Shown here piece after piece: positions 484-61,709 of a stretch of 64,000 nt of DNA; positions within the stretch are counted from its first letter, which is position 1; the number at the start of each line of letters is the position of its first letter. The stretch covers positions 38,861-102,860 of the forward strand of contig CAVTEG010000014.1 in assembly GCA_963733815.1 (NCBI GenBank), written 5' to 3'. The notes beneath the pieces are model-generated. The model did not search any database. It saw only the letters and a list, made by a program, of their open reading frames with translations, and was not told where the DNA came from. Origin of the DNA: an uncultured Acidobacteriota bacterium. Lineage in GTDB: Bacteria > Acidobacteriota > Thermoanaerobaculia > UBA5066 > Gp7-AA6. A program made the translations under genes and the position numbers.

Positions 484-1406
484 ATGTCCAGTACCTTGGA
501 GTTCCGTCACGGTGTGCTCGCCGCTTATCCCGACGTCTATACGCCGGCGGCGCGGACGGCGCTCGAGGCGCTGGCGCCCCTGAATCGCGATCGGTGTCGA
601 ATCATGGCCGAGCGCAGCGTGCGGCGTCGCGAGCGAGCTATCCACGGTCATCGGATGGACTTTCTCGAGCCCGACGCTCTCATCCCGCGCACCGACCTCC
701 GCGTGCGCGATGCCCGCGAAGGCCTCTTCACCGGTGGCGACATTCCGGCCGATCTGCGGCGCCAGTGGATCCAGGGAACGGGGCCCGCCACGCGGCCGCG
801 CGCCACGGCCGAGAGCGGGCTGCGCAACGTCGCGTACGCGCTGCTCTCTGGCGCCGACGGCTGGATGTTCGACGGCGAGGATGCTCTGGGACAGGTCGAC
901 ACGTTGTCGCTGGACAACCAGCGGAATCTGAAGTCGCCTTTGACGAGGAGCCGATCTTCCTGCGGGTCGCCGATGACGTCGCCGCCGAGATGAACGAATG
1001 GGCATGGGACTTTCTGGGCCGGCCGATGTTCGACGGCTGGCGCCGGCAGCTCGCCTTCACCACCCGGCTCTTCCGTCCTCGCGGACTGCACCTGGACGAC
1101 CGTCACCTGCGCGAAGAGGACGGCACCGGCTTTTCCGCATCGATCGTCGACCTCGTGCTCTATGTCGTCAACAACCGCGAGCGACTGCAGGCGGAGGGCC
1201 GGTCCATCGTCCTCTACCTCCCGAAGATCCAGACGGCCGAAGAGGCCGCTTTGTGGAACGACATGCTCGCCGCGCTCGAGCGACACCTCGGGCTTGCGGT
1301 CGGGACGATCAAGGTCTACGTGCTCGTCGAGCAGATCGAGGCCTGCTTTCAGCTCATGGAGATCCGCGCCGCGCTCCGTGGGAGACCCCGGCCGTTTTGT
1401 TTCTGA
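484..1406 (+). pseudogene. Malate synthase A-like gene, frameshifted near 930 and lacking about the C-terminal half
   Basis: Two ORF-track frames (208..993 from residue MSSTLEF, and 594..1406) align colinearly with AceB-type malate synthase ('WMFDGEDALGQV', 'RPRGLHLDDRHL', 'LYLPKIQTAEEAALWNDM', 'IKVYVLVEQIEACFQLMEI'). The homology stops at about 1380, and the next gene starts at 1496. Confidence 0.75.
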
Positions 1407-1495
1407 ACCGCAAATCCGGCGTTGCCACAACCGCCGACGCCCGAGGCACAAGCGGTGGCCCCGTGATAGCGTGATGGAACGTTAGGGAGTTTCTC

Positions 1496-3711
1496 TTGAA
1501 GCCGGCTCGACCCGCTCCCGACACACGGAGGTGGTCTCCTTCCGGGAAAGGCGCGATTCTCGCCGGCTCCGGCGAGCGCCGGCAGCAACCGAATCACACC
1601 GGCCTCTTGAGAAGACTCACCTGTCCGGGCGTCCTGTTTCTGGCAGGCCTCCTGCTGATCCCGCGGGTCGCATCTTCCGAGTCGTCCTGGATTCCTTTGA
1701 CTCCGACGGGCGGACCGCCTGCTCCACGACGCTTTCACAGCTCCGTCTATGACCCGACGAGCAATCGGCTGATCCTCTTCGGCGGCTGTCTGGCCGGCAC
1801 GTGCCAGAGCGTCACGCAGTCGACCAATGAAGTCTGGGTGCTGACGAATGCCAATGGAGTCGGAACGCCGGCGTGGAGCCAGCTCACACCGACCGGTCCG
1901 CTTCCTCCCGCACGATTTCTTCACGTGGCCGCGTACGACACGGCGACCAATCGCATGATCGTGTGGAGCGGCGACAGCACGTTCGTCAGCCTCCCGGATC
2001 TCACCGACGTGTGGGTCCTGACGAACGCGAACGGGCTGGGAGGAACTCCGGCATGGGTTTCGCTTTTTCCGACCGGAGGGCCGCCGCCGGGAGGCACCTT
2101 TCCGGGCCGGGAATTCACGAGCGCCGTCTACGACGGGATCACCAATCGGATGATCGTGTTCGGGGGCGCGACCTGTGATCCGTGCGGGGGAAGAAACGAC
2201 GTCTGGGTCCTGACGAACGCCAACGGCCTCGGTGGCGCACCAGCCTGGCTGGAGCTATTTCCTTCCGGCGAACCGCCGAGCGCTCGCTACCTCAACAGTT
2301 CGACATTCGACTCGGCCGGCAATCGACTGATGATCTCGGACGGAGTCGGTCCGGGGGGAGGAGTCGCCGGCGACACGTGGGTCCTCGCGAATGCGACGGG
2401 TCTCGCCAGGAGCACTGGGATGCCGACCACTCCGGTCTGGACATCGCTTCCCGACGGTCCCGAGGCTCGCGCCTTCCATGCCGCGGCGTACGACCCCTTG
2501 AGCAATCGCATGGTCGTTTTTGGGGGCTCCGGGAGTTCGGGGTACCGGAACGACGTCTGGGTTCTCGACAACGCGAACGGGGCCGGCAGCGGGCCGGCCG
2601 CCTGGAGTTTGGCGACGCCGATGGGAACGCCGCCGGACGCAAGGGTCGTTTTCTACCATTACCAGCTGTACGACCCGGCGACACGCAGGCTGCTCGTTTT
2701 TGGCGGCGATGACGATACCGGGGCGCCGGCTCTCACGGACTACTGGGTGCTGACCGACGCGGTCGGGTCGCTCGCCGGCGCGTCCCTGAAGCTGGACGTC
2801 CACGGGTCCGGTGGCTCCTCCAACCTCAATGGCGTGCTGGAGCCCGGCGAGTCGGTCGTCGTGGAACCGGCCTGGTTGAACATCAGCGCGGCGTCTCTGG
2901 GGCTGACCGGCACCGCCTCCCTCTTCGAGGGCCCGCCCGCCGGTGGAACGACGTACACGATCGTCGACGGCGCGGCGGACTACGGAACCCTCGCCGCCGG
3001 AACGTCCGGCGACTGCTTCGCCGCCACGCAGGACTGTTACGAGCTCGCCGTCTCCGGACCGCGGCCCGTGCCTCACTGGGACGCGATTTTCGCCGAGTCG
3101 CTTTCGTCGACCCTGGACAAGACCTGGACTCTGCACATCGGCGAGAGCTTTGGCGACGTGCCGACCCCGAGCGTCTTCTACCCGCACATCGAGAACATCT
3201 TCCATCACGGCGTCACGACCGGCTGCAGCGACACCGACTTTTGCCCCGAGGAGCCGGCGCTGCGCAAGCAGATGGCGGTTTTCGTGCTGAAAGCGAAAGA
3301 GGGTGCGGCATACCTGCCCCCTCCGGCAACGGGGATTTTCTACGATGTCCCGGCGAGCGACCCGTTCGCCCCGTGGATCGAGGAGCTCTATCACCGGGGC
3401 GTCGTCGCGGGTTGCGTCGGACCCGGAGCCCAGGAGTACTGCCCGAACGATCCGGTCTTGCGGCAGCAGATGGCCGTGTTCCTGCTGCTCACGCTCGAGG
3501 GCTGCCGGTTACGCGCCGCCGGCCTGCTCCGGGCTCTTTGCCGACGTCGCATGCCCCAGCCTCTTCGCCGATTGGATCGAGGACTTGTGCGATGCGCGCG
3601 ATCACCGCCGGTTGCGGCGAAGGAAATTTCTGTCCCACGAAGGCGACGACGCGCGCCCAGATGGCGCCGTTTCTGGCCAAGACGTTTGGTCTCGTGCTCT
3701 ACGGTCCCTGA
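1496..3711 (+). pseudogene. Secreted Kelch-repeat beta-propeller protein with three C-terminal SLH-like repeats; the last repeat is split over three frames (about 3500-3600)
   Basis: Repeated 'R(M/L)I(V/L)FGG...NDVWVLTNANG' Kelch units and a hydrophobic signal-like N-terminus (alternative TTG start at 1607). The SLH-like units 'F.DV...PWIEELY..GV..GC...CP......QMAVFL' continue in the frames of ORFs 3303..3785 and 3241..3711, which ends '...TRAQMAPFLAKTFGLVLYGP*'. Confidence 0.7.
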
Positions 3712-4358
3712 AACAAGAGTTGGTCCAGACGTCTGATGAACCCCGGCCTGGCGAAGACCGGATTCGACGGGGCTCCTCCCGCTAACTCTCGATCCTGTAG
3801 ATCTCACGGCGACCATAGTTGATCGATTCGGCTTCCCTGTCTCGACGTCCAGCGAGTGCGTTCGGAGGCCCCCCCTCTTCCGCATGATGAGAACGACGCG
3901 CCCCGGCTTCCCCGGGGGCGAACGCGCACCCAGGTGGATGTCGCGGGTTCGACCCCGTTTCCCGCTCCAAGCTATCCCCGGCGCGTGAGTGCCTTAGAGT
4001 CGAACCTCGCCCTTTTCGTCCGAGTCTCTCGATCGGGGCCCTCGAGCCGCTCCCGAGGATCCCCGACGTCCTCTCACCCGGCTGGTCAAGATCGACCGTC
4101 CAGGACGCAGTGGCATCGGACGGGTACGCGAAGCGTGTTCGAACCGGATCATCGGAGCGCTCGGAAAATCTTCGCCGCGCCCTAACCAAGGGATCGCGCT
4201 CCCGGTGCTGCTTCTGATGGGAACCCTGCGGGAAGTCTCCCGCGCCGCGAAGCGGCGAAGAGGGTTCGGCGTCCACAGCGAGCTCCAAAATGATGCATCC
4301 GGGTCATGACAGGCGATGCTTTTCGAGGCATGTTGGTCACTCCAAAAGGAGGAGTGTC

Positions 4359-12767: not shown

Positions 12768-12793
12768 GGCCTGCCCGCGGGCCCTTTTTTTTT
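12768..12793 (+). terminator. Putative intrinsic terminator (GC-rich palindrome GCCCGCGGGC + T9) with no upstream plus-strand gene
   Basis: Nine consecutive T at 12785-12793 directly follow a GC-rich palindrome. It lies 20 nt before the start of the ndvB-like gene. Confidence 0.45.
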
Positions 12794-12812
12794 GCGTGGT
12801 AAGAAGAGCGTA

Positions 12813-15800
12813 ATGCGAGCGCCCGACCTCGCCCATTCGGTCAGAGCTCTTCTCGACGGAGCACCTGGAGCAGTTTGCCGGCGCCCTCGCGGCCGAGCAT
12901 CTCGTCTTTCCGGGAAAGAGGCGCGGCCGGCGGCTGCTGCCGCGCCTGCGCGAGAACGCCAGGGTCCTGGTGCATTCGCAACGGCTGATCGCGGAGGCGA
13001 GCCGGCAGACTCGCTCCGATCTCCCCCGCGGCCGAGTGGCTGCTGAACAACTTCCACATCGTCGAGGAGCAGATCCGCGAGATTCAGGAGGATCTGCCTC
13101 CCGGGTTCTATCGCGAGCTGCCCAAGCTCGCGTCCGGAGAGCTCAAGGACTTTCCGCGCGTTTACGCGCTCGCCTGGGAATTCGTATCCCACACCGACAG
13201 CCGAATCGAGCTCGAGACGCTCGGGCGGTTCGTCCGTGCCTATCAACGCGTACAGCCGCTCACGATCGGGGAGCTGTGGGCCCTGGCGATCTCCCTGCGC
13301 CTCGTGCTCGTGGAGAATTTACGGCGCATGGCGGAGGGCGTGGCCGCGCGAGGCATCGCGCGGGATCATGCGGATGCCGTCGCCGACGCGCAGCTGGGCA
13401 CCGACGGCGCCCCGAAGCCCGGACCGGCGGCCATGATCCAGATGCTCGAGCAGCGGCCGTTCACGAAGGCCTTCGCGGTGCAGCTCGCCCAGAGGCTTCG
13501 CGAGCAGGATCCCGCGGTCACGCCGGCGCTCGACTGGCTCGACCGACGGCTCGCCCGGGAGGGCACCACGACCGACGAGATCGTTCACACCGAGCACCAG
13601 GCCCAGGTCGCCACCCATGCCACGGTGCGCAACGTCATCACCAGCATGCGGCTGCTGTCGGCCGTCAACTGGGCGGATTTCTTCGAGAGCGTCAGCCTGG
13701 TTCACGAGGCGCTCTGCGCGGGCACGCGCGTCGCCGAAATGGACTTCGCGACCCGGGACCGCTACCGGCACGCGGTCGAGGAGCTCTCGCGAGGCTGCGC
13801 GCAGGACGAGGTCGAGGTGGCGCGCGGGGCCGTCCGCATGGCGCTCGACGCGCAGGCCTCGTCCTCCCGACGCGCCGTCCTTCGAGCCGCGCCTGGCCGA
13901 CCCGGGCTACTACCTCATCTCCAGGGGCCGCTCGCGTCTCGAATGCGGTGCTGGAGTACCGGTTGCCCGCGCGCCAGTGGCTGCGCCGCGACGTGGTTCC
14001 AGCGCGGCGGCTCCCCTCTACCTGTCCTCGATCGTCCTCTGGACCGCCGCGATCCTCGCCGTCCCGGTCTCGGTGGCCGCGGCCGCGGGCGACCCCGATT
14101 GCTCTCGCTCCTCCTCACCCTCCTCGCCCTCGTCCCGGCCTCGGATCTGGCGACCAGCCTCGTCCAACGGTTCGTCACGGAGCTCGTCGGTCCGCGCCGC
14201 CTTCCCAAGCTCGAGCTCGCCGGCGGGGTCCCGGAGGGCTCGACGCACCCTCGTCGCCGTCCCGATGCTCCTGACCGACGAGTCCGACATCCGCGACGTC
14301 GTCCAGCGGCTGGAGGTGCATTACCTGGGCAATCCGGATCCGGAGCTCCGGTTCGCGCTGCTGTCGGATTGGTCGGACGCGCCCTCGGAGAGCCTGCCCG
14401 AGGACCAGGCCCTCCTCGACGTCGCGCGCGCCGCGATCCGAGAGCTCAACGAGGAGCACGGCAGCGCGGCGGGTGGCGGCGACCGATTCTGGGTCTTCCA
14501 CCGCCGGCGCCTCTGGAACCCGAGCGAGGGGGCCTGGATGGGGTGGGAGCGCAAGCGCGGGAAGCTCCGCGAGCTGAATCGGCTCCTTCGAGGCGCGACG
14601 GACACGTCCTTTCTTCCGCAGGATCACGGCGCGGCCCCGCCCTCCGGAGTCCGCTACGTCGTGACGCTCGACGCGGACACCCGCCTGCCGCGAGAGGCCG
14701 TGCGCCGGATGGTGGGCACGATCTCCCATCCGCTGAATCTCCCGATCTTCGATGCCGCGGCCGGTCGCGTCGTCGACGGGCACGCGATCCTGCAGCCGCG
14801 CGTGACTCCGACCCTCGCCGAAACCGGGTGGGGAACGATCTTCCAGCTCGTCTTCTCGGGACCCCGCGGCATCGATCCCTACGCCTTCGCGGTGTCGGAC
14901 GTTTACCAGGACCTCTTCGGCGAAGGCATCTACACCGGCAAGGGAATCTACGAGGTGGACGTCTTCGAGAGAGCGCTCGGCGAGCGCGTCCCCGAGAACA
15001 CGCAGCTCTCGCACGATCTCTTCGAGGGCCTCTTCGCCCGAGCCGGATTCGCCTCCGACGTCGAGCTCTTCGAGGGATTTCCGGGTCACTACGAGGTGGC
15101 CGCGTCGCGCCAGCACCGGTGGGTCCGGGGGGACTGGCAGCTGCTGCCGTGGATTCTGGGAACGCGGCCCCATGGCAGGCCGTGCGGCCGGCTCCATCCC
15201 CATCATGGGGCGGTGGAAAATGCTCGACAACCTCCGCCGCAGCCTCTCGGCGCCCGCGATGCTCGCGACCCTGCTCGCCGGGTGGTGCCTGCCGAAGGCG
15301 AGCCCGAGGCTCTGGACGCTCTTCGTGCTCGCCGATTCTCTCGCTTACCGACGCTCCTCTCGTTCTTCACGAACCTCGTTCCGAACCGCCGCGGCATCGC
15401 CAAGCGGAGCTTCGTGCGCGGCGTCGTGGCGGATCTGGCCGTCGGCCTCGCGCAGTCGGCTCTCCGAGTCGTCTTCCTCGCCCACACCGCCTGGCTCCGG
15501 ACTGGACGCGATCGCGCGGACACTCTGGCGGGTGGCGGTGACGCGGCGCCGGCTGCTGGAGTGGGTGCCCGGCGGCGCAGTCGCTGCGCGACGTTGGACC
15601 TGGAGGCTTACGGGTTTTTACCGTCGCATGCGCTCGGCCCTCGGGGTCGCCGCGGTGGCGGCGCTTCCTGGTCGCCGCGTCCGGGCAAAGGCCTCCTGGC
15701 CATGGGCCGTGCCCTTCCTGGCCTGCTGGCTCGTCTCGCCGCTGGTTGCCTGGTGGGTCAGCCAGCCGCCGCGGGAGATCGACGGCGCCCAGATCGACGA

Positions 15801-18800
15801 GGCCCAGGCGCGCGAAGCTGCGCCTGATCGCCCGTCGAACCTGGCGTTACTTCGAGCGGTTCGGGGGGCCCGATTCCCATGGCCTCCCGGCCGACAATTT
15901 TCAGGAGGTGCCGCGAGCCGCAAGTCGCCCCGCGAACCTCGCCGACCAACATCGGGCTCGCGCTTCTGTCGACGGTCGCCGCCAACGACTTCGGCTGGAT
16001 CGGAACCGGCGAAATGGTGGAGCGGATGGAGGCGACGTTCGCGACGATGGCAAAGCTCGAACGGTATCGAGGCCACTTCTTCAACTGGTACGACACCGAG
16101 AGCCTTCTGCCGCTGGAGCCCCGCTACGTCTCCACGGTCGACAGCGGGAATCTCGCCGGGCATCTGATCGCCTTCCGAAATGCGTGTCTGGATCGATTGG
16201 AGGAGCCCGCCTCGATCGAGCGGGCGCTTGCCGGGCGTCGCGGCAGCGCTCGATCATCCTGCGCGAGACCGCGGCGGCGGTATCCGAGCGGAATCGGGAG
16301 CCGCGTCGTTACGTATCGCCAGCTGGAAGAGGCCGTTCGCGAGACCGCCGCGCTCCTCTCGCCGGCGCCCGCGTCGCCGGACGAATGGGCGGAGCGTCTT
16401 CGGGCGCTGTCGTGCCGCGCCGAGATCCTGGTCGACATCGGTCTCGCGCTCGTGCAGGAAGGCGGAAGGTCCGAGGCGGAGCGCCGTGCTCGAGTGGGCG
16501 AGGGCGGTTCGCGATTGCGTCGGCGAGCCATGCGCGCGACTCCGGGAGCAAAGCAAGGCGCCGAGGGTGAGGAGGCGTTCGCCCGAAGGAGCTCTCCTCC
16601 ATCGCCGCCACCGCGGCGACGCATGGCGCAGGAGATGGATTTCGCGTTCCTCTACGATTCCGGTCTCGCGAGCTCTTCGCGATCGGCTATCGCATGTCCG
16701 ACGGCACATTGGACCCCGGGCCACTACGACCTGCTCGCATCGGAAGCGCGCCTGGCCAGCTTCGTCGCGATCGCGCTCGGTGACGTGCCGGTCGAGCACT
16801 GGTTTCACCTCGGCCGCCCCTTGACCCCGGTCGGGCGCGGTTCGGCGCTGATGTCGTGGTCGGGATCGATGTTCGAGTACTTGATGCCGGACCTCGTTCT
16901 CGAGGCCCCACCCGCGAGCCTGCTCGAGCAGACCAATCGGCTCGCCGTGCGCCGCCAGATCCGTTACGGAGAGGAGCGGGGCGTTCCCTGGGGAACCTCC
17001 GAGGCGGCCTACAACGCGCGGGACGTCCAATTCACCTACCAGTATTCCAACTTCGGCGTCAGCGGCCTGGGGTTGAAGCGCGGCCTTTCGGAGGATCTGG
17101 TGGTGGCCCCTTATGCCACAGCGTTGGCTGCCATGGTCGAGCCGGTCGAGGCGCTGGAGAATTTCGAGCGCCTGGCCTCGATCGGCGCGCTCGGTCGGTA
17201 CGGGTACTACGAGTCGATTGATTACACGCCGACCCGGGTCCCGGAGGGCGCGGCCTTTGCGATCGTTCGCGCGTTCATGGCCCACCATCAGGGAATGACG
17301 ATCGTTGCGCTCGCGAACGTGCTGTTGGGATCCGTGATGCGCGGGCGCTTTCGGGACGAGCCGGCCGTTCAGGCTACCGAGCTCCTGCTCCAGGAACGCA
17401 CGCCCCGCACCGTGGCGGTCGCGCGCCCCGATCGGCGAAGGGGAGCTGCGGCTCCACGTGCGCGATGAGGTTCCGCCGGTTCTGCGGCGATTCCGATCGC
17501 CGCACGATCCGACGCCCCGCACGCATCTGCTGTCCAACGGCGGGTACTCGGTGATGATGACCGCCGCGGGCTCCGGCTACAGCCGCTGGCGGGGGCTCGA
17601 CGTGACGCGCTGGCGGGAGGACACGACGCGCGACGCCTGGGGGACTTTCGTGTTCTTAGCGACGGGGAGTCCGGTCAAGACGTGGTCGGCCGGATATCAA
17701 CCGGCGGGAGTCGAGCCCGACCAGTACGACGCCATCTATTCGGAAGACCGCGTCGAGATCCACCGACGGGACGGTGACCATCGCGACGAGCCTGCGGACC
17801 GTCGTTTCGACGGAGGACGACGCGGAAATGCGGCAAATATCGCTGACGAACTTCGGGTCTGCGCGCCCGAGAGATCGACATCACTTCGTATGCGGAGATC
17901 GTTCTCGCTCCCTCCGCGGCCGATGCCGCTCATCCGGCGTTCTCGAACCTCTTCGTCCAGACCCAGTTCGTCCCCGAGATCGAGGCCCTGCTGGCCAGCC
18001 GCCGGCCTCGCGATCGCGAGGAGCCGGTCTGGGCGGCACACGTGATGACGGTGCACGGCGAGTTCGTCGGCATGCTGCAGTACGACACGGATCGCGCGCG
18101 CTTCCTGGGGCGGGGCCGCCGATCCGTCATCCGAGCGCCGATCGAGGATCGCCGGCCGCTGTCGAATACGGTCGGCACGGTCCTGGATCCGATCTTCAGC
18201 ATTCGTCGCCGCCTCCGCCTCGCCCCCGGCGCCACGGCACGGGTGCAACTTGCGCTGATGGCGGCCGACACCCGCGAAGGCGCCGATCGCCCTGGCCGAC
18301 AAGTACCGGGACCCCGCGATCTTCGAGCGTGTCTCCAACCTGGCGTGGACGCAGGCCCAGGTCCAACTGCGGCATCTCGGGATCACGAGCGACGAGGCGC
18401 ACCTGTTCCAACGCGTCGCCACCCGCATCCTCTACTCCGATCCCACGTTGCGCGCTCCGGTGGAGACCCTGATCCGCAACCGCCGGGGGCCGTCGGCTCT
18501 CTGGAGACATGGAATCTCCGGCGATCGTCCGATCGTGCTCGTGCGGATCGACCAGGTCGACGACCAGGGAATCGTGCGGCAGCTGTTGCGCGCCCACGAG
18601 TACTGGAGACTGAAAGGGCTGAGCGGTGGATCTGGTCATCGTCAACGAATCGCCCGCCTCCTACTCTCCGGAGCTCGGCACCGCGCTCGAGTCTCTCGTT
18701 CGCGCCGGAGTCCGCGCATTCGGCGTCGCGACGGAGCACACGGTGGGGGAGGTCTTCGTGCTGCGCGGGGAGCTGCTTTCGGGCGAGGAGCGCGACGCGC

Positions 18801-31996: not shown

Positions 31997-33646
<1,650 letters not shown>

Positions 33647-42847: not shown

Positions 42848-43498
42848 TCAACCCCCGGCTGTGTGGAACAAGCGGGCCGATCAAGAATCCGGCCGCGGCA
42901 GCGCCCAGGCCGATGGCCACCATCTGCAAGCCGCTCCGACGCCAGTCCCCGATCAGAGTCTTCGCGGAGTAAACGCCCACGGCGAAGAGCGTCACTGCAC
43001 TGAGCGATATCGCCGCAACGATCGCCGGTGTCCGTGCGAACGCAATAAAAGGGATCAACGGGATCAAGTGGCCGATGAGTGTGGCCACCGTGACGATCAC
43101 TGCGCTACGCAGCAGGCTTTGCTCTTTGACCGGCTGGAGATGCAACTCTTCGTCCATCATCGTGCTCACCCAAGCCTCCCGATTCGAGGTGATCGTGGAA
43201 ACGACATCCTCGAGCAACTGCCCTCCGAAGCCCTTGGCCGCATAGATTTCCCGGATTTCCGCGCGTTCCTCTTCGGGTTGCGACGAGATCTCATCTTGCT
43301 CGCGCTTTTTCTCCGCGAGATAGAAGTCACGGATCCGAACCAAACGATGTGTACGCCACCGCACCCATGGAAATCGATTCCGTGATGTGCCGCGGCAATT
43401 CCGGTGACGACGAGAACGTGGCTAGACCCGCCGGCGGCCACGACGCCCAATGCGATACCCAACATGTTGACCAGGCCATCCTGTCCACCCAGAATCAC
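42848..43498 (-). pseudogene. VIT1/CCC1-family transporter with at least 3 frameshifts
   Basis: 'MILGGQDGLVNMLGIALGVVAAG' (ORF 43166..43498), then 'ITESISMGAVAYTS' in a third frame, then 'AEKKREQDEISSQPEEERAEIREIYAAKGF...LIPLIPF' (ORF 42627..43364). The likely true stop is at 42848 after a further shift. Confidence 0.65.
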
Positions 43499-43832
43499 AT
43501 CCCTCGAGAGAGTTCTTTGCGCTGTGCGGCTCTGTGGCGGGCGAGGTGTATCTTGCCGGGGTCGAGAGAAGCACGCACGACGCGTCCCAGGCGAGTTGTG
43601 GATGTTCTGGGCATGTCGGAGAGGTCGGGCCTTTCCACGCCGCCTCCGGCGCGGGAGGCCCGATCGTACTCCTCTGGCTTGCCCTCGCGAGGAACGGTCA
43701 CGCGTGCGCCCGTCGGCCAGGGCGGGTGGAACGGGCCACGAAAGGGGAATAGCATGGCACCCCGTTCGACGTTCGAGGCAGACCTCGATCCGAGGCTGAC
43801 CCGATCCGAGGACGAGTCGAAGGACCTAGAGC

Positions 43833-46800
43833 ATGTGGCTAGTCCGACTCGCTCTCAGCCGGCCTACACGTTCGTCGTCGTGTCGCTCCTCATCGCCGTC
43901 CTGGGGGTGCTGTCCATCGCCGCCATGCCCACGGACATCTTCCCGAAGATCGACATTCCCGTCGTCAGCGTGATCTGGGGCTACGGCGGTCTCTCGCCGG
44001 AAGAGATGCAGGACCGGATCACGACGGTCGTCGAGCGCGCGTTCACCACGACGGTCAGCAACATCGAGCACATGGAGTCGCTGTCGGTGCGGGGGACCAG
44101 CGTGATCAAGCTGTTCTTGCAGCCAAAAACGGACGTCAACGGCGCGGTGGCTCAAGTGACGGCGATCTCTGAGACGCTGCTTCGGCCCCTGCCTCCGGGC
44201 ATCACGCCGCCGCTGATCATCGCGTACAACGCGGCCGACGTGCCGGTGATCATGCTGAGCCTCGGCAGCGATCAGCTCTCGGAGCAGCAGCTCTGGGACT
44301 ATGGGAACAACTTCATCCGGACGCAGCTCGTGACGGTGCAAGGCGCGGCGGTTTCTTCTTCCCTACAGCGGCGTGAGCCGCGTCGGTGAACGTCGACCTC
44401 GATCCGGACGGCCTCTACGCGCGGAGTCTGTCGCCCCAGGACGTCGTCAAGGCCGTGCTGAACCAGAACATCGTCGTCTCCGCCGGCACGATCAAGATGG
44501 GGGTCGATCGAGTACGACGTCGCCATCAATAGCAGCCCGGAGGTCCTGGCGGACCTCAACGACATTCCGATCCGCTATTAAACGGAGCCATGGTCTACGT
44601 CCGCGACGTGGGGATTCGTCCACGACGGCTTCAGCGCCGCAGACGAACCTCGTGCGGCGCGACGGCAGGCATTCGCGTCCTGATGCCCCATTCTCAACAG
44701 CGGCAACGCCTCGACGCTCGACGGTCGTCGAGCGGAGTCAACGAGACCTGATGCCGAGGGTCCAGGCCGGTCTGCCCAGGAGCCTGAAGGTGGATTTCGC
44801 TGTTCGACCAGAGCGTATTCGTTCGCGCGGCGATCGCCGGGCGTGCACGAAGGGGACCGATTGCGGCCTGCCTCGATCGGCGCTGATGATTCTGGTCTTC
44901 CTTGGCACTCCTGGCGAAGCACGCTCATCGTCATCATCTCGATTCCGCTTTCGATCCTCGCTTCGTCGGGGTGCTGCGCGTGCTCGGGGAGACGCTCAAC
45001 GTGATGACGCTCGGCGGTCTCGCGCTGGCAGTCGGTATCCTGGTCGATGACGCGACGGTCGAGATCGAGAACATCCATCGCAACATCGGCCTCGGCACAG
45101 CGCGCTGCCGTCAGGCGATTCTCGACGGCGCCGCAGCAGATCGCCGCGCCGGCCTTCGTCGTCGACGCTGTCGATCTGCATCGTGTTCGTCCCGGTCGTG
45201 TTGCTGGGCGGCGTCGGCGGATTATCTCTTCACGCCGCTCGCGCTGGCCGTGGTCTTCGCGATGCTCGCCTCCTATCTGCTCTCCCGGACGCTGGTGCCC
45301 GACGATGTTCGCTGTACCTGATGCGCCGAGGGAGCGGGCCCGAATGGAGGGCGCGAAGAACGAGAAGCCGCGCTCCTTCGCCCGGAGCCTCCGATCGGAT
45401 CGAGGCCGGCTTCGACGGCGCTCGCGCGACGCGCTACCAGGGAACGCTCGACTGGGTGCTGGCGAACCGGAAGCGTCGCGTTCTCGCGTTCGTTGGATCT
45501 CGCCGGTCGGCTCGGCGTCGTACTGTTCCCGTTCGTGGGCCGCGACTTCTTCCCGACGGTCGACGCAGGGCAGCTCCGGCTACACGTGCGCGTGCCGGCC
45601 GGGACGCGGATCGAGGAGACGGAGGCGTACTTTCAGCGGGTGGAGGACTACATCCGCGGAGTGATCCCGGCCGACGAGCTCGTCCGTGGTCAACGACAAC
45701 ATCGGCATGCCGAACAGCGCATCAACCTCGCGCTCAGCGACAGCGCCACCGATCGGCACCGTCGGACGGGGAGATCCTCGTGGCTCTCAAACCCGAGCCA
45801 TGCGTCCGACGGCCGAGCTACCTGAAGACGCTGCGCGAGGACTGCCGAAGCGATTCCCGGACCTTGAGGTTCTTCTTGCAGCCGGCCGACATCGTCAGCC
45901 AGATCCTCAACTTCGGCTTGCCGGCGCCGATCGACATCCAGATCAGCGGGCCGATCGCGCAAGCCGGTGCAACTACGCGATCGCCCAACAGATCGCGGAG
46001 CGAGCTCGCCGGCGTTCCCGGCGCGGTGGACGTGCACATCCAGCAGATCGTGAGCGCTCCGCGCCTCATGGTCGAAACGGATCGGGTCCTGGCGCAGCAG
46101 AACGGCATGACGGAATCGGACATGGCCAACAGCCTGTCCGTTTCGCTCTCCGGCAGCGGGCAGCCTCGACCGAATTTCTGGTTGAACTACAAGAATGGAG
46201 TCCAGTATCAGGTCGTCGTGCAAACGCAAGCAGCACCACCTCGACCTCGATGGACGAACTGCGGCCGCACCCCGCTCCTCGCCGCCGGGCAGACGTCGAC
46301 CGCAGATGTTGACCAACCTCGCCACGATTCGGCGAACGTCCACGGCCTTGTCGCTCAACCACTACAACGTGCAGCCCGTCTTCGACGTCTCCGCCAACGT
46401 GCAGGGGACGGACCTCGGAAGCGTCGTCGAAGGCGATCGACAAGATCGTCGCCGGCATACGGCGAAGATCTCGAAGGCCAGCACGATCACCGTGCGCGGA
46501 CAGATCGCAGAGCATGAAGCAGTCGTTCGCCCAGATGTCGCTCGGGCATCTGTTCGCGATCCTCCTCGTGTATTTCCTGATGGTCGTGAACTTCCAGTCG
46601 TGGCTCGGCCCCTTCATCATCCTGACCGCTCTGCCCGGGCGCGCTCGCCGGAGTCTCTGGGCTGCTCTTCGTGACGCACACGACGCTCAGCGTACCGTCG
46701 CTCATGGGCGCGATCATGGCGATCGGCGTCGCGACTTCGAACAGCATCCTGATGGTCACGTTCGCCAACGAGCAGCGCGCCCGGCGTCGGCGAAGGACTC

Positions 46801-47126
46801 GCGGGACGGCCGCGCTGATCGCCGGCCGCACGCGGCTGCGCCCCGTCCTGATGACGGCGCTCGCCATGCTCTTCGGCATGCTGCCGATGGCCTCGGGCTG
46901 GGCGAGGGCGGCGAGCAGAACGCGCCGCTCGGCCGGGCCGTGATCGGCGGCCTGCTGCGTGGCGACGTTCTACACGCTGTTCTTCGTCCCGGCCGCCTAC
47001 AGCGTGCTGCAGCGAAAGCCGCCGCTGGCCGCGATTCGAACGGGCGAGGAGAAAACGGAAAAGGAGCCGCCGAAGAAGTACCCGCCGGAGAAAAAGCCGC
47101 CGGAGCAACCGGAGAAGCCGTCATGA
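43833..47126 (+). pseudogene. RND (AcrB/HAE1-like) inner-membrane efflux pump with many frameshifts
   Basis: 'MWLVRLALSRP' shifts at once to 'YTFVVVSLLIAVLGVLSIAAMPTDIFPKIDIPVVSVIW'. Further pieces lie in ORFs 44902, 45183, 45493, 46195, 46514 and 46671 ('ALAVGILVDDATVEIENIHRN', 'LMVVNFQSWLGPFIILTALP', 'MGAIMAIGVATSNSILMVTFA'). Confidence 0.8.
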
Positions 47127-48428
47127 GCAATTCGAGCGGCATCGAGCAAGAACCGGCGGCGGCGGAACCCTCGCACGTCGACCATTCCGTGCCGCGCGCC
47201 CGGACGCGAACGATGCAGGTCATCGGCCTCGGCATCCTCGTTCTGTTTGCGGTCCTTCTGGTCGTCAGCGTGATCCCGCGCGTGATCAACCGCCACCGCC
47301 TGGCGAAGGCGGCGCAGTCCGTGCGCACCGCGGTGACCAGCGTGCACGTGGTCTCGCCTGTTGCCGCCTCCGAAGCGGGCCTCTCCATCGCTGCCACGAC
47401 CCAGGCCATGCAGGACGCGATCATCTATGCCCGGACGAGCGGCTGCGTTCGCAAGCGCTATGTGGACATCGGCGACGACGTGAAAGCCGGCGAGCTCCTG
47501 GCGGAGATCGACTCCCCGGAGATCGACCAGCAGCTCATGCAGGCCCGGGCGGATCTGCGGACAGGCGGAGAGGAACCTGGACCTTCAGAAAGCCACTCTG
47601 GATCTGAATCGAGTCACCATGGATCGCTACAAAGGCGCCGACGAGGAGGGGGCGGTTGCAGTCGAGGCGGTGGATCAGAGCGTGTCGGCCTACCGGACGG
47701 CGGAGGCCGCCGTCGCCGCGGCGGAGGCGAGCGTCGAATCGAATCGGGCAAACGTCCAGAGGCTCGTGGACTTGACCGGCTTTCAGCGAGTCGTCGCACC
47801 GTTCGCCGGGACGGTGATCCGAACGCAACGTGGATGTCGGGACGTTGGTCACCGCGGGCAGCCCGACCGACAACACCGCCGTGGCTCCGACCAGCGTGAC
47901 AGGCCAGGCGAACGGGCTCTTCGAGGTCGCGCGCATCGACGAGCTGCGCGTGTTTGTGAAACGTTCCCCAGGTCTATGCGCCGAACGTGAAGGTCGGTCT
48001 CCCCGTCGAAGTCACGGTTCGGGGACAGCTCCAAACGCCGGTCACCGGCACGGTGACGCGCACCGCCCGAGCGCTGGATCCGGCGACGCGCACGCTGCTG
48101 ACGGAGGTGGACATTCCCAATCCGACCCATCGGATGCTTCCCGGAATGTTCGTGTACGTCGCCTTCAAGATCGGCCCCTGCCGGGATACGGTTACGCGTT
48201 CCGGCGACGGCGGTCATCGTTGACGCGAAGGGGACCCGCGTCGCGATCGTCAGGACGGGGAGATCAGACTGCGCTTTCTACCGGTCGGTGCTCGGACGCG
48301 ACTTCGGGGACGTCATCGACATTCAGGAGGGCCTGGCGGGCGGCGAGACCATCGTGGCGCAGCCGACCGTTTCGCTCCAGGAGGGCCAGGTCGTCAACCC
48401 GATCGCGGCCAAGGGCGCCGGGAGCTGA
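47123..48428 (+). pseudogene. RND periplasmic adaptor (MFP/HlyD family) with several frameshifts
   Basis: ATGA overlap with the RND stop. Contains 'DIGDDVKAGELLAEIDSPEIDQQL', 'RVVAPFAGTVI' and 'LPVEVTVRGQLQTPVTGTVTRTARALDPATRTLLTEVDIPN', spread over three frames. Confidence 0.7.
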
Positions 48429-48434
48429 TCGGCG

Positions 48435-49965
48435 ATGCGGGGCCGTTCTCCGGACCGCCGCTGCGATCGTGCGCCGTCGCTGGCGTTTCCGCTTCTCGCC
48501 GTGATGACCGGAGCGTGCATGGTCGGCCCGAACTATTCGCGGCCGCCGGTCGAGGAGCCGCCCGCTTTCAAGTCCGAGCTCCCGGCCTCGCCCTGGGCGC
48601 TTCCCGAGACCGGCTGGTGGGAGCTCTATGCGGATCCGGAGCTCACGCAGTTTGATTGCGGCCGCGAACGCTTCGAACCCAGACTCTTCGCCAGGCGGTG
48701 GCGCGCGTTCGACCAGGCGCGAGCGCTCGCGAGGGTTGCGGGGAGCTACCTCTACCCGTCGGATCTCGGCGAATCCGCGTTCTCTCGGACGCGTTTCTGG
48801 GAACGCGCGACAGCACCATCACCGGTGAGCCCGTGACCGGGGGCGCGACGATCAGCGACTGGATCATCACTGCCGATCTGTCCTGCGCAGATCGACGTCT
48901 GGGGCCGCGTCCGCCGGTCGTTCGAATCCTCACGGGCAACCGCCGAAGCGGCAGCCGACGACGAAGCCGTCGTTCGGCTCACGGTCCAGGCGGACGTGGC
49001 CACCCTGTACCTCACAACATCCGCTCGCTCGACGCCCAGGATTGATCTGACGCAGACCGTCAAGGCCTGTCGGGAAGGCAGGTTGCCCATCCTTTCGGTC
49101 CAGCTCGAGGATCGGACTCGTCAGTTCGATCGCCGTCTATCAGGCGCAGTAGCGCTGTTCCAGACGACGCGCAGGCCCTCCAGCGGGACGTCCAGCGAGC
49201 GCGGGCGGACCTGGAACATGTTCTTGCCATCCTGTGCGGGCGACCCGCGCCATCGTTCGCGCTCCCCGTACGCCCGCTGGAAGTACGGCGCTGCCTGCGT
49301 GCCGGCCGGTCTGCCCGCCGACCTGCTGACCCGCCGTGCCGGACGTCGCCGAGGCGGAGCAGAACGTCGTGGTGGCGAACGCCCAGGATCGGAGTCGCCA
49401 CGGCGGACTTCTATGCGCGGTTCATGTCTGACGGGCTACGCGGGTTCGAAAGCCGCCCGTGCGAGCGATCATGTTCAACTGGGCGGAGCCGCGTCGCTTC
49501 GCTCCTGCCGAGCATCTCGTTCCCGATTTCCAGGGTCGGACGGCTGAAGGCGCAATCTCGCGGCGACGAAGGCCCAGTATCGAGCGAAACCGTGGCGGCG
49601 TATGTCCGAACAGGTTCTGATCGCCTATGGAAGATGTCGAGGACGCGCTGACCGACTTGGACGCCCTCGCCGACGAGGTCGAGACCTTGCGCGGGGCCGT
49701 GGACGCGTCCAGAATTACCTCCGGCATCGCCCGAGCGCAGTTCAAGTACGGGCTGGTGGACTGACCTGCTCGTCATCGACGCCGAGCGCCACGCTGCTCG
49801 GCAACCAGCTGCTGCTCGGCGCAGACCATCGATTTGCGGCATGAGGGCCAGCGTCGAGTCTCATCAAGGCGCTCGAGCGGCGGATCGGGAGGGCCTTTGC
49901 AAGGGCCGAACACGCCGCCCTCGGGAAGAGGCGGACGCAAAAGCCGGAGAGCCCCGGCGTCATAG
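48435..49965 (+). pseudogene. Outer-membrane efflux factor lipoprotein (NodT/OprM family), heavily frameshifted
   Basis: Lipobox 'LLAVMTGACMVGPNYSRPPV' and 'WWELYADPELTQ'. The C-terminal 'SLIKAL..GG' signature is reachable only through further shifts. The likely stop is the TAG at 49963. Confidence 0.6.
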
Positions 49966-49977: not shown

Positions 49978-50906
49978 ATGGCGAAGATTGGATTCCTGGG
50001 GTTGGGTGAGATGGGCACGCCGATGGCCGGGCGCTTGCTCAAAGCGGGTCATGAGTTGACGGTCTGGAATCGCAGCCCGGAGAAGACGGCACCCCTGGCG
50101 AAGGAGGGCGCCGCGGTCGCGGCGACTCCCGCGAAAGTCTCCGCCGGTGCAGATGTGGTCATCACGATGCTCGCGACGCCGGATGCCCTCGAGCAGGTGC
50201 TCTTCGGAGTCGCGGGGCTGGCGGCCGCGCTCTCACCCGGCCAGATCCTGATCGACATGTCGACCGTGGGGCCGGACGAGGTCCGCTCGGCCGCTTCTCG
50301 GCTTCCCGAGGGCGCATCCCTCGTCGATGCGCCTGTACGGGGCAGCGTGCCGCAGGCCACATCCGGGAAACTCGACATTTTCGTTGGCGCGACCGACTCG
50401 GACTACGAGCGTGTGCGGCCGATCCTGGAGGTTCTCGGCGCGGTGCGGCATACGGGAGGACCCGGAGCAGGAGCCGCGATGAAGCTCGTGGCGAATCTCG
50501 TTCTGGGTGCCGCGATCGTGACGCTCGGGGAGGCCCTCTCTCTCGGAGAGTCGCTCGAGCTCAAGCAGGCCGTCATTCTCGATGTCCTCGCCGGCTCGCC
50601 GATCGGACCCATCGTCGCGGCCAAGCGAGGCAATGTCGAATCCGGCCTTTTCCCTCCAGCTTCAAGCTGCGGCATGCTGAAAAAGATCTCCGGCTCGTCA
50701 CCGAAGCGGCGGCCGCCAGAGGCGGCGACCTCAAGCAGGCCCGGGCGAATCGCGCCTGGTTCGACGAAGCCGCGGAGCGGGGCGCCGCCGACCTCGACTT
50801 CTCGGCGGTCGTCGCGACGATTGGAGGGAAGCCACCCGAGCCGACCCGCAAGAGTATGGAGAATCGTCCGCAGGAGCCGGGTGGGCGCAAGGAGATTCGG
50901 ACATGA
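49978..50906 (+). pseudogene. 3-hydroxyisobutyrate / 6-phosphogluconate dehydrogenase-family NAD(P) oxidoreductase with a single 1-nt deletion near 50663
   Basis: 'MAKIGFLGLGEMGTPMAGRLLKAGH' Rossmann start. After 'GNVESG' the expected 'F.PSFKLRHAEKDLRLVTEAA' is in the neighbouring frame. Stop overlaps the next gene as ATGA (50903-50906). Confidence 0.7.
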
Positions 50907-51991
50907 AGTACAGGAAGTTGGGACATACCGGGCTCATCGTCAGCGAGGTGGGGCTGGGCAGCATGCAGTTCGGCGGCAAGATGAACATGGGCAACCTCGG
51001 CCAGGAGGACACGACGCGAATGGTGAGGGTCGCCCTGGACAACGGCGTCAATTTCGTCGACACGGCCGACGTGTACAGCCTCGGCGAGAGCGAGACGCTT
51101 CTGGGCAATGCGTTGAAGGGCATCCGGCAAGAGATCGTCCTGGCCACGAAGGTCCGGCTTCCCATGGGTGGAGCCGAGCAATTCAATCGAAGCGGCGCGA
51201 CGCGCGTGAACATCCTGCGAGAGGTGGAGGGCAGCCTCGAGCGGTTGCAGACCGATTACATCGACCTCTACCAGGTGCACGGATGGGACAGCAACACGCC
51301 GCTGGAGGAGACCCTGCGCACGCTCGACGACCTCGTGCGCCAGGGGAAGGTCCGTTACATCGGGCTCTCCAACTACATGTCGTGGCAGGCGGCTACGGCG
51401 ATCAGGCTGCAGGAGCGCCTCGGACTGGAAAGATTCGCGACGGCGCAGATGTATTACAGCCTCGTCGGCCGGGGCCTCGAATTCGAGTTCCAGTCTTTCG
51501 CCGAGTACCACGACGTGGGCATCCTGGTCTGGAGCCCGCTCGCCGGCGGCTTCCTGACGGGCAAGTACACGCGCGGCAACCCGCCGCCCGCCGGCAGCCG
51601 ATTCTTCGACGCGGGTCAGTTCGTTCCGTTCGACAGGGAGAAGGGCTACCTCGTCGTGGATGCGCTGAAGGAGGTGGCCGCCCGCCGCAACGCGAGCCCG
51701 GCGCGCGTCGCGATCGCGTGGCTGCTGGGCCGACGAGCGGTCCGCAGCGTAATCGTCGCCGCCCGGAAGGCGGAGCAGCTCGAAGACAATATCCGTGCCG
51801 TCGACTTGCGACTGTCGGACGAGGACGTTCGACAACTGGATGCGGCGTCGGATCCGGGTATTCCGTACCCGAAGTGGATGGTGTTGCAGCTCGATACCGC
51901 CGAGGACCCGCGTCCGAGGATCCTGCATCCCGAGCGCTACGCGAAGGGCGGTCAGTGGAAAGACCTTCGGGGAACCGGATGGTCCGGATAG
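50903..51991 (+). CDS. Aldo/keto reductase
   Basis: Intact 362 aa with 'YRKLGHTGLIVSEVGLG', 'FVDTADVY' and 'DLYQVHGWD'. Confidence 0.9.
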   Translation: MKYRKLGHTGLIVSEVGLGSMQFGGKMNMGNLGQEDTTRMVRVALDNGVNFVDTADVYSLGESETLLGNALKGIRQEIVLATKVRLPMGGAEQFNRSGATRVNILREVEGSLERLQTDYIDLYQVHGWDSNTPLEETLRTLDDLVRQGKVRYIGLSNYMSWQAATAIRLQERLGLERFATAQMYYSLVGRGLEFEFQSFAEYHDVGILVWSPLAGGFLTGKYTRGNPPPAGSRFFDAGQFVPFDREKGYLVVDALKEVAARRNASPARVAIAWLLGRRAVRSVIVAARKAEQLEDNIRAVDLRLSDEDVRQLDAASDPGIPYPKWMVLQLDTAEDPRPRILHPERYAKGGQWKDLRGTGWSG

Positions 51992-54887: not shown

Positions 54888-57377
<2,490 letters not shown>

Positions 57378-57443: not shown

Positions 57444-59499
57444 TCAGGTCAGGTGGCGGGCGCGGCCGAAGGCGTCCATGCGGCCCCAGCGGCCCGGGAT
57501 GTCCAGTATCTGCAGCTCGCCGATCGCCTCGGGCATCGCCGGGTCGATGATCAAGTGATCGCCTTCGGGCTCCAGGCCCAGCAGGGTGCGCAGCAACAGC
57601 AGCGGCGCCCCGGTCGCCCAGGCCTGCGGACTGCACGCAGTCGGGTACTCGACCGGGTACCTCGTGGTCTCGCGCGCGTAGCCGGCGAAGGCCTCGGGCA
57701 AGCGGTCATGGAAAAGTTCGGCCGCCTCCAGAATCCCCACGGCGAGCCGGGCCGCCTCCTTCCGGTAGCCGTAACGCCGCAAGCCCCACGCTGACGATCG
57801 ACGTGTCGTGCGGCCAAACCGTGCCCACGTGGTAGCCGATCGGGTTGAAGGATCCCTCGCCGACCGCCATCGTGCGCACGCCCCAGCCCGAGAACAGGGC
57901 GTCGCTCATCAGGTGGCGCACGCAGCTCTGGCCTTGTCCCGATCGGCGATCCCGCTCCACAGCAGGTGGCCGATGTTGGAGGTCAGCGAGTCGACTTTGC
58001 GCTTCTGGCCATCGAGCGCCAGGGCGAAAAACCCGCGCTCGGGGATCCAGAAGTCCTCGTTGAAGCGCTGCTTGAGCTCCGCGGCCTCGCGCTCGAGGCT
58101 GATCCGCCCAGGCCGGATCGCCCCAGACCAAACGCGCCAGCCGCGCCGTTCGGATGCTTGGCGTCGTAGACGTAGCCCTGCAGCTCGCAGGTGGCGCGCG
58201 GCGTGGGCGCCAGCGTGCCGTCGGCGAAGGCGATCGAATCCCACGAGTCCTTCCAGCACTGGTTGTCGAGGCCGGTCTTCCGGTTGCGTCGCTCGTACTC
58301 GACGTAGCCGTCACCGTCGCGGTCGCCGTAGTCGTCGATCCAGTCGACGGCGGCGCGCGCTTCCCGCTCCAGCGAGCGCGATCAGCCCGCGGTCGCCGGT
58401 CCAGCGCTCGTACTCGTCGAGCAGGATCAGGAACAGCATGGTCGCTGTCGGCGGCGCCGTAGTACGGCGAGTGCGGCCGCTCCTCGAAGGCGGTCAGCTC
58501 GCCGAGGCGCAGCTCGTGAGGATCTTGCCCGGCTCCTCGTCGCGGAACGGGTCGTCGACCCGCGCCTGGAGCAGGGCCAGCGTGCGCAGCGTGGTCGACG
58601 CGAGCTCGGGCGACGAAGGGCAGCGCTTGAAAGCTGGTGATCAGGCTGTCGCGCCCGAAGATGGCCATGAACCAGGGCAGCCCGGCCGCGGGCAGCGCGC
58701 CGGGGAAGATGACGCTCTGGAAGCGCAACGCCGCGAGGTCCACCAGGCTGCGCTGGTAGGTGCGCTCGAGCGGCGTCCGCACGGAGACCAGCTTGGGCGC
58801 GGCGGAGATCCACTCCTGGATGCTCGCGTCCCCCTTGGGCCGCGCCTCGGCGGCGCCGTGCCAGTTCTTGGACTTCCCGGCGCCGCCGTCCGAGCGCCAC
58901 CGGATGTTGGAGATCGCCCCTACGTCCACGTAAGTGCTCCAGCTCCCTTGCGGCGGAATGGTGATCCGGTAGAGCAAGCCCTCCTCGCTCACCTCCGCCT
59001 GGCTGCTGCTGGTGATGGTGGTCTCGCGCTGGAAGGTATCGCGCCGGTACCCCAGGGTCAGGACGCCGTCCTCCACGCGCCGGTAGACCTGACCCTTCTT
59101 GTTCGGGTTGCGGTCCTTCACCTCGAACAGGTCGGCAAAGTCCGCGGCCGCCTCGAGACGTACGGTCAGCTCCGCCGGCTCCTTGTCGTGGTTGACCAGG
59201 GTCAGCTCTTCGTGAAGGCCGTCGCCGACCCAGCGCTGCCTCTGGACGGACAGGTGAGAGTCCAGGTAGATGGTCCCCGTGGCCACCGCCAGGAAGAAGC
59301 CGACCCGGTAGTACGCCAGGTCGTCGGTGGACAGCAGCTTGGGGCGCTGGCCGTTGATGGTCAGAATCCAGCGTGAGAGAAACCGGGTGTCGTCGCGGAA
59401 CAGCCCCAGGGTCTCGGTGGCCGAGTCATCGATGTCCCCCCGGGCGTCGCTGACCACGAACTCGTTGCCGTCCAGGATGCTGACGGTGTCCTTGGGCAT
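57444..59499 (-). pseudogene. Amylo-alpha-1,6-glucosidase / glycogen debranching enzyme (GDE_N + GDE_C), frameshifted in its central part
   Basis: The N-terminal 300 aa are intact in ORF 57706..59499 ('ILDGNEFVVSDARGDI...FRDDTRFLSRW'). The C-terminal end is in ORF 57444..57782 ('PTACSPQAWATGAPLLLLR'). The middle is recoverable only across frames (for example ORF 57909..58259). Confidence 0.7.
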
Positions 59500-59502
59500 G
59501 GC

Positions 59503-60674: not shown

Positions 60675-60896
60675 TCGCCGAGGCGAATTCAGGCAGGTCT
60701 TCACGGGGCGCTCACTGCTACTCACCCCCTCCACAACAGCGAAAGAGTCCTCGATCTTCGCGGTTCAGAACGCGATGACGCGTGAGCAGAGAGCTCCCCG
60801 GTCGAGACATTTGGTCTCCCTCTCTACGGTCCGTGATACCGGGCTCCACATATACTGAGCTCCAGCGGGCCCGCCGCTCGAAGAGGAAGGCGTCGC

Positions 60897-61391
60897 ATGC
60901 GGTTGAGTCCGGCACGCTGGCTTTCATCAATCCGGACGCGCGATTGGGTGATGCACTCGGCCCGTTCGGCCATCGCCGCAGTCGCCTCTCTGTCCCTGGC
61001 GAAGCTATTGAAGATGCCCGAATCGTACTGGGCCGCGATCACCACCATCGTCGTCATGCAGTCTTCCTTGGGCGCCGCGTGGGCGCCATCGATCGAGCGG
61101 TTCGCAGGCACCGCGCTGGGCTGCGCTTTCGGCGCGTTGGTCGCGAGCTTCCTCGCGCCAAGCTGGCTCGTGTACGGCGCGGGGATCTTCGCGCTCGGAC
61201 TGATCTGCGCGGGCCTGCATCTCGATAAGTCTGCCTATCGGTTCGCAGGGCTGACGTTCACGATCGTTATCCTCGTGACTCGCCCGGGCGGACCGGTCGT
61301 CGTCGCGCTCCACCGCTTTCTGGAGGTTTCGATCGGAATTTCGGTTGGCCTCGCCATGACGGCGCTCTGGCCCGAGCGCGAGTCGGTCTAA
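60897..61391 (+). CDS. FUSC-family small membrane protein (intact copy)
   Basis: 164 aa with 'AAVASLSLAKLLKMPESYWAAITTIVVMQSSLGA' and 'RFLEVSIGISVGLAMTALWP'. Confidence 0.65.
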   Translation: MRLSPARWLSSIRTRDWVMHSARSAIAAVASLSLAKLLKMPESYWAAITTIVVMQSSLGAAWAPSIERFAGTALGCAFGALVASFLAPSWLVYGAGIFALGLICAGLHLDKSAYRFAGLTFTIVILVTRPGGPVVVALHRFLEVSIGISVGLAMTALWPERESV

Positions 61392-61709
61392 CAGAGAGGC
61401 CGGCACCCGGGTGGTGAGCTCACCACGGGCCACCTGCTCGTAGGCCGCGCGACCGTCGAAGAGAGGGCCGGTTTCCCAGACCTCCACGCCAAGCCATTCG
61501 GCCGGGCCGTGGATGATTATGCCGGCATAGTCGCGCCCGGGCACGCGGGGCGAGGTCGTGAGCTCCATCTTCCCCTCGACGTTCTTCACATCGCTGGGGC
61601 TGATCGCTCCCGCCGCGACCTTGACGATCGCTGTTGCGGAATCGGCCTTGGGATCCGGCAACTCGATCAAGCGCAGGTTCGAGACCGGGCCAAACTCGGT
61701 GAATTGCAA
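61392..61709 (-). pseudogene. Zinc-type/MDR alcohol dehydrogenase-quinone oxidoreductase remnant (GroES-like N-domain only)
   Basis: 'MQFTEFGPVSNLRLIELPDPKADSATAIVKVAAGAISPSDVKNVEGKM...PGRDYAGII' is followed directly by a C-terminal-type tail. The Rossmann domain is missing. The ORF then runs antisense through the FUSC gene. Confidence 0.4.

Follow-up and report, generated by a model that had tools for sequence, protein, structure and literature searches.

Clustered single-base frame changes in a 64-kb stretch of an uncultured Acidobacteriota bacterium are probably consensus errors of a metagenome contig

Why should genes cut into dozens of reading-frame pieces lie beside neighbours that are perfectly intact? 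The question is raised by a stretch of 64,000 nucleotides (nt) from an uncultured Acidobacteriota bacterium (assembly GCA_963733815.1, contig CAVTEG010000014.1, positions 38,861 to 102,860 of the forward strand), referred to here as the window, which has a G+C content of about 66% and contains a long ndvB-like glucan synthase gene and an efflux operon, both interrupted by many frame changes. A first-pass annotation, made by a model from the letters alone, considered two readings of this pattern, genuine gene-specific decay and locally poor consensus. The second is retained here: the frameshifts are very probably technical, that is, leftover single-base consensus errors of a metagenome contig assembled from error-prone long reads.

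At least about 108 frame changes were counted in the 64 kb, a mean of about 2 per kb. The whole window was scanned with a hidden Markov model of codon usage, for which the clean genes served as the training set and which placed events in the MFS pump, the RND operon, the S9 peptidase, HIBADH, the debranching enzyme, the ThuA-like gene and malate synthase. This codon model is insensitive, having recovered 17 of the 36 events of ndvB and losing the frame in the densest stretches, and counts taken from it alone (S9, MFS, ThuA) are minimum values. In the verified clean genes, about 14 kb in all, not one event occurs where the window mean predicts about 28 (Poisson P ~1e-12), so the first-pass annotation was right that frameshifts are uneven and that broken genes stand beside intact ones. 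It had taken the gene as the unit of this unevenness, which did not hold: the unevenness follows patches, not genes, because clean kilobase blocks occur inside ndvB and one patch crosses three genes. The unit of damage is thus a patch of 0.4 to 6 kb that ignores gene borders, and the densest patches, with one error per 70-100 nt, lie beside more than 14 kb free of error.

Syntenic reference genomes were tried and set aside, as the nearest glgP relatives (84-86% at the amino acid level) share no gene order with the window; reference proteins were taken gene by gene, from L073 for ndvB, P0122 for RND, and L083 for the membrane-fusion protein (MFP) and the outer-membrane factor (OMF). For ndvB, a frameshift-aware protein-to-DNA alignment of our own was made between the intact L073 orthologue (2933 amino acids) and positions 12400-21700, and it divides the gene as follows.

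12784..21351, plus strand: ndvB-like cyclic beta-1,2-glucan synthase gene, 36 frame changes, no in-frame stop
13877..14243, plus strand: dense patch A, 7 frame changes in 370 nt
15183..16715, plus strand: dense patch B, 20 frame changes in 1.5 kb
17427..18622, plus strand: sparser patch C, 7 frame changes
18623..20290, plus strand: clean block of 1.67 kb, differing from relatives by whole codons only (19024 and 19744/6)
13019-13876, 14244-15182, 16716-17426 and 20293-21351, plus strand: further clean blocks, from the protein alignment

The gene is colinear with its orthologue over 12784-21351, with 79-92% identity in the long blocks, and of the 36 frame changes 29 are due to a single surplus base in the window and 7 are shifts of two. 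The first-pass annotation had counted about 20; the frameshifts stand, and the number was too low. All 36 events are confined to about 3.3 kb of the 8.6 kb and leave five clean blocks of 0.7-1.7 kb each. The ndvB orthologues in L001, L002, L057, L008 and L019 are single open reading frames (ORFs) of 2841-2926 amino acids, and the ndvB relatives nearest to the window are uncultured Acidobacteriota from soil.

At the DNA level, Logan contigs of soil short-read metagenomes were aligned to the window. The best runs are soil metagenomes sharing 5-22% of its 31-mers, and thus contain relatives rather than the same strain. Comparison with relatives had been proposed in the first-pass annotation as a check: short-read contigs of 92-95% identical relatives, from at least four independent samples, lack each compared indel, and the window is the odd one out. 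In patch A, a 463-nt contig of a relative has nine gaps over 13880-14341. In patch B, relatives from four runs lack one base at each of 15815, 15913, 16231, 16256, 16285, 16463, 16483, 16617 and 16717, and two bases at 16658/16662. The protein alignment predicts frame changes at these very sites, so that DNA and protein evidence agree. In patch C, each frame change has its counterpart in a length difference from relatives (at least 92% identity, three samples), at 17431, 17777, 17858/9, 18119, 18141, 18286/8 and 18625. Over 16700-18700 as a whole, the relatives at this level of identity (X1, X8 and X18, from three samples and studies) show unbalanced length differences only at the seven predicted sites and agree with one another. 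Patch B also includes a hypervariable segment of ndvB (16520-16620), where the contigs of relatives skip 99 bases and carry 97 unrelated ones instead, a length difference of 2 nt.

The substitutions that separate the window from these relatives tell whether the gene has been under selection. A hand tally over 16700-18700, in the repaired frames, gave 39 substitutions, with 31 (79%) on codon position 3 and four each on positions 1 and 2, and this third-position bias holds in seven differently framed blocks of ndvB; the tally for patch B was weaker and in the same direction (23 of 40 on position 3). A clean block had 45/871 mismatches (5.2%) and an affected block 61/981 (6.2%); the indels are not accompanied by surplus substitutions. 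Because 31 of the 39 substitutions fall on position 3 of the repaired frames, selection on the compared stretch of ndvB was never relaxed. A gene dead long enough to gather 36 indels would be expected to carry several hundred neutral substitutions, which would blur the bias.

The lesions themselves form a narrow spectrum. Almost all are single bases, the longest are of 2 nt, insertions exceed deletions by about 3:1, and no larger deletion was seen among the frame-breaking lesions. The share of insertions is 29/36 in ndvB, about 16/20 in the OMF gene and 4/4 in the MFP gene, with about 16 insertions to 13 deletions in the RND gene. Among more than 100 disabling events there is not a single in-frame stop codon in the repaired frames. 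This spectrum bears directly on gene-specific decay, that is, genuine pseudogenization of certain genes in the lineage through relaxed selection or reductive evolution. The affected genes are indeed mostly accessory (an efflux pump, a glucan synthase, a peptidase), the clean ones include groEL and glgP, and a truncated malate synthase and a desaturase-like remnant, described below, suggest some real gene loss; broken genes beside intact ones, with accessory functions hit more than core ones, are also familiar from Mycobacterium leprae and from recently host-restricted symbionts. Real bacterial pseudogenes, however, show nonsense mutations, deletions in a wide range of sizes and the substitution patterns of relaxed selection, none of which is seen in the window. 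Its lesions of 1 nt with an excess of insertions are the opposite of the deletion bias that Mira, Ochman and Moran are said to have found in bacterial pseudogenes in 2001. The lesions are, moreover, clustered within genes instead of spread evenly along a dead gene, as the confinement of the ndvB events shows, and they are absent from all relatives compared, while the substitutions keep to third positions. Pseudogenization is therefore very unlikely, and of the two readings first proposed, that of decay is given up on account of the lack of stops, the insertion bias, the position-3 bias and the lesion-free relatives.

The sequence context of the indels argues in a similar way. At 18 inspected indel sites neither a homopolymer nor a shared motif was found, and no run was longer than 3-4 bases, so that the first-pass statement that the indels lie outside homopolymer runs was confirmed in 18 of 18 contexts. 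Replication slippage is unlikely, since these contexts are neither repeats nor homopolymers. Programmed recoding, in which ribosomal frameshifting, transcriptional slippage or RNA editing would act at the shifted sites, would account for the fact that the repaired frames encode well-conserved proteins, and nothing more direct speaks for it. Programmed frameshifting uses a conserved slippery site, usually one per gene and common to orthologues. The window has up to one shift per 70-100 nt and dozens per gene, the shifts go in both directions, the 18 sites have no slippery motif in common, and the shift sites are not conserved in any relative or orthologue. Recoding has almost no chance of being the explanation.

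The second large set of frame changes, in the efflux operon, shows most clearly that the damage ignores gene borders.

43820..46990, plus strand: RND permease gene, clean to 44353, then at least 29 frame changes
47020..48420, plus strand: MFP gene, 4 single-base insertions, at 47559, 47820, 47961 and 48193 (codon model)
48430..49960, plus strand: OMF gene, 1.5 kb with at least 20 frame changes, of which about 16 are +1 insertions

The RND counts come from three-frame translations traced by eye against P0122 (1038 amino acids, 61% identical), and the OMF counts from translations traced against the syntenic OMF of L083. The RND gene is clean over residues 1-151 of P0122 (its first ~450 nt), and the changes that follow comprise about 16 insertions and about 13 deletions. 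A single deletion at 44353 was considered and rejected, as the tracing shows two insertions there. Over 45058-45190 the contig of a relative has nine gaps; from 46900 to 51000 the relatives are too divergent and their contigs were uninformative for the DNA-level comparison. The repaired MFP aligns with that of L083 over its full length, at 60% identity and with one gap. The many frame changes ascribed to this operon in the first pass were thus found in all three genes, and they belong to one patch (44353-49900, 5.5 kb, about one indel per 100 nt) that starts within the RND gene and crosses RND, MFP and OMF. Beyond ~49900 there is one event in HIBADH and none in the aldo-keto reductase (AKR) and CCP genes. 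The operon order, RND permease, MFP, OMF, is also that of JGI soil contig L083 (3375-8950), whose RND is 63% identical to the RND query from the window.

A third affected gene was followed both by the codon model and at the DNA level.

57447..59500, minus strand: glycogen debranching enzyme gene, 7 frame changes within 57774-58611 (codon model)

Its N-terminal 1.2 kb is clean, and only the 3' 0.85 kb is affected. Relatives differ from the window by single bases at 57929, 58098, 58376/7, 58446 (in all four runs), 58520 and 58611, so that six of the seven changes are also visible in the DNA, in agreement with the codon model. The repaired enzyme matches GDE_N_bis plus GDE_C 72-363/367. Two candidate causes of the patches were rejected with the help of these genes. 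G+C content peaks at 0.706 in the 2-kb bin 14001-16000, where parts of patches A and B lie, but it fails as a cause, since the clean ndvB block at 18-20 kb reaches 0.698 and the dense RND/OMF patch has only 0.65-0.67. That the patches are simply the variable parts of genes fits ndvB, where they lie in stretches with scarce or divergent relatives, and fails for the debranching enzyme, whose patch is its most conserved and relative-rich part.

The affected genes are interspersed with controls in which the codon model found no frame change, namely glgP, groEL, AKR, DyP, the sigma-54 regulator, CCP, the S33 hydrolase, encapsulin and ORF 24657-26270. Three of them are the following.

54888..57377, plus strand: glgP, intact, Pfam match 2-712/713
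32009..33646, plus strand: groEL, intact, Pfam match 1-488/490
50903..51991, plus strand: AKR gene, adjoining the dense patch, intact, Pfam match 1-290/291

Compared with relatives, glgP shows only compensated indel pairs, in one divergent contig; in groEL the differences are a single whole codon (+GAT at 33007) and, at 32000/32007, a compensated pair. Full-length Pfam matches in a single frame were also obtained for CCP, the S33 hydrolase, the sigma-54 regulator and the two domains of DyP. The first-pass list of unbroken genes is thereby upheld, by full-length Pfam matches and the codon model for glgP, S33, groEL, the ntrC-type regulator, CCP, AKR and DyP, and by only an open frame and the lack of a codon-model event for the other two members, encapsulin and ORF 24657-26270 (537 amino acids), the latter of which has no Pfam match. 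This ORF lies directly after a gene for an Fe/Mn superoxide dismutase. At 38465-40272 (minus strand), the intact DyP-type peroxidase gene lies directly upstream of the encapsulin shell gene, and the two make up a classic cargo-plus-shell pair.

What could then produce indels alone, in patches, in an organism whose relatives have none of them? Locally poor consensus is the explanation preferred here, because of the indel-only spectrum, the unrelaxed selection, the disregard of gene borders and the position of the window as the odd one out. In stretches of 0.4 to 6 kb the consensus would be poorly supported, for example through few reads, unpolished sequence or gap fill, and the resulting indel-only noise would act on stretches of assembled sequence. 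Single-base repair restores full-length proteins, as seen in the MFP against L083 and in the HIBADH, MFS and GDE domains. The source contig measures 488,127 nt and comes from a soil-type community; contigs of such size are typical of long-read assembly, which suggests that the source assembly is of this type, and the worst patches, at one error per 70-100 nt, come close to the quality of raw long reads. We infer sequencing platform and local read depth as the cause; low depth, mixed strains and unpolished gap fill are all compatible with the poor consensus and possible.

Consensus indels in long-read assemblies are known to fragment genes (PMC9262707, PMC6469205). The window resembles the Nanopore or PacBio CLR assemblies for which the IDEEL test and frame-shift correction were described (PMC9262707, PMC6469205) in its single-base indels with no excess of substitutions, its gene pieces colinear with intact homologues, its long contig from a complex community and the absence of its errors from the short-read assemblies of relatives. 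It differs from the usual long-read errors in that its indels are not tied to homopolymers, are biased to insertions and are strongly patchy.

A special case of the technical reading is a collapsed strain mixture, in which the reads of several similar strains would have been merged and nearby variants would have shifted the alignments, so that bases were gained or lost. Collapsing nearby variants of two haplotypes brings indel errors into a consensus (PMC8445201), as documented for the collapsed assembly of Trypanosoma brucei Lister 427, where variants close together misalign reads and add indels, and where the truncations of ORFs vanish once the alleles are separated (PMC8445201). T. brucei is a diploid eukaryote with two alleles, whereas here the mixture would be one of soil bacterial strains. 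Soil metagenomes contain many coexisting relatives at 85-99% identity, the ndvB patches are the stretches of greatest divergence among relatives, and the excess of insertions agrees with a consensus in which both alleles are retained. However, the patch of the debranching enzyme lies in a highly conserved stretch, and the 5.5 kb of the efflux operon are nearer to raw-read quality than to occasional clashes of variants. A strain mixture is thus possible but doubtful as the specific cause. The position of the ndvB patches in relative-poor stretches fits artefacts of strain mixture, or a polishing that was effective only in the conserved parts.

Several observations weigh against consensus errors as the full explanation. 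The lack of any tie to homopolymers means that these are not classic nanopore consensus errors, which weakens the label of nanopore homopolymer error and not the technical explanation as a whole. The patches do not follow one pattern: those of ndvB lie where relatives are scarce or divergent, that of the debranching enzyme in a strongly conserved, relative-rich stretch. No public run was found to contain the window's own sequence, the best share of 31-mers being 0.22. The truncation of the malate synthase gene at 1376 is structural and shows that single-base errors do not make up all the defects of the window. Finally, identity to the closest relatives is no higher than 92-95%, and the comparison is compatible with an event that is specific to this strain and very recent. 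The indels would then be real, the product of a very recent mutational burst restricted to indels on kilobase-long tracts, for example by error-prone repair synthesis, which destroyed ndvB and the efflux operon before substitutions accrued. Such a burst is highly unlikely. The other affected genes are listed below.

41105..42627, plus strand: MFS transporter gene, at least 2 frame changes, at ~41602 and ~42393 (codon model)
42627..43500, minus strand: second VIT-family gene, 3' part clean, 5' part in other frame(s)
49978..50860, plus strand: HIBADH-like gene, one frame change at ~50650
34272..36782, plus strand: S9 peptidase gene, 3 frame changes (34711, 35091, 35381) in the N-terminal half (codon model)
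1496..3711, plus strand: Kelch plus SLH-repeat gene, two +1 insertions (near 3500 and near 3590) interrupting the last SLH-like repeat
484..1376, plus strand: malate synthase remnant, one frame change at ~934, abrupt end at 1375/1376

These results largely bear out what the first-pass annotation had reported: several frame changes each in the MFS pump, the S9 peptidase and the debranching enzyme, one each in the HIBADH-like, malate synthase and ThuA-like genes, and a last repeat of the Kelch gene spread over three frames. For the ThuA-like gene (10881) the codon model is the sole basis. The repaired MFS protein matches MFS_1 3-346/347, near full length, and repair of one base extends the NAD_binding_11 match of HIBADH from 1-71/122 to 1-121/122. 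In the S9 peptidase, the contig of a relative aligns exactly from 35099 to 35380. All six Kelch blades are in a single frame, and the broken repeat is the SLH-like one. For the second VIT gene several changes had been claimed: its N-terminal part is indeed in another frame, with the 3' 500 nt clean, a Pfam VIT1 match (60-213/214) in ORF 42627-43364 and shifts in the frame plot at ~43200 and ~43350. The longest local ORF (49978-53322, 1114 amino acids) is not a gene; it opens with HIBADH sequence, continues in a wrong frame across AKR and closes with the cytochrome c peroxidase (CCP). As the high G+C content keeps wrong frames open, the length of an ORF says little about whether a gene of the window is intact.

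Malate synthase differs from the other cases by its end. Only 3-103/248 of MS_TIM-barrel is matched, no continuation past 1376 was found in any of the frames, and the window there carries unrelated sequence followed by the Kelch gene. In four soil runs, relatives have contigs that read on at 1376 into sequence for GPHFVGFNTG, the expected continuation. This end reflects either a real deletion or a chimeric join made in assembly. What looks like a second truncated gene remnant is found at 30725-31380, where some 90 codons similar to a membrane fatty-acid desaturase N-terminus (motif HRCFAH) stand immediately before a gene for a BON-domain lipoprotein (Pfam BON 1-68/69). Also present, at 37706-38158, is a small SET-domain gene, lysine methyltransferase-like (Pfam SET 1-104/105); SET-domain genes are uncommon in bacteria.

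The frame changes in the window are not a biological feature. Automatic gene calling on this contig will yield fragments and "pseudogenes" by the dozen, and the wrong frames kept open by high G+C lead to false long ORFs, such as that of 1114 amino acids extending over three genes. The combination used here, that is, the lesion spectrum, the absence of stop codons, the position-3 bias in repaired frames and the comparison with short-read relatives, constitutes a recipe for telling error from decay that needs no reads. In the organism itself the genes for ndvB, RND/MFP/OMF, the debranching enzyme, S9 and MFS, among others, are most likely intact, and claims of reductive evolution, of efflux loss or of the loss of glucan synthesis in the lineage, if drawn from this sequence, would be wrong.

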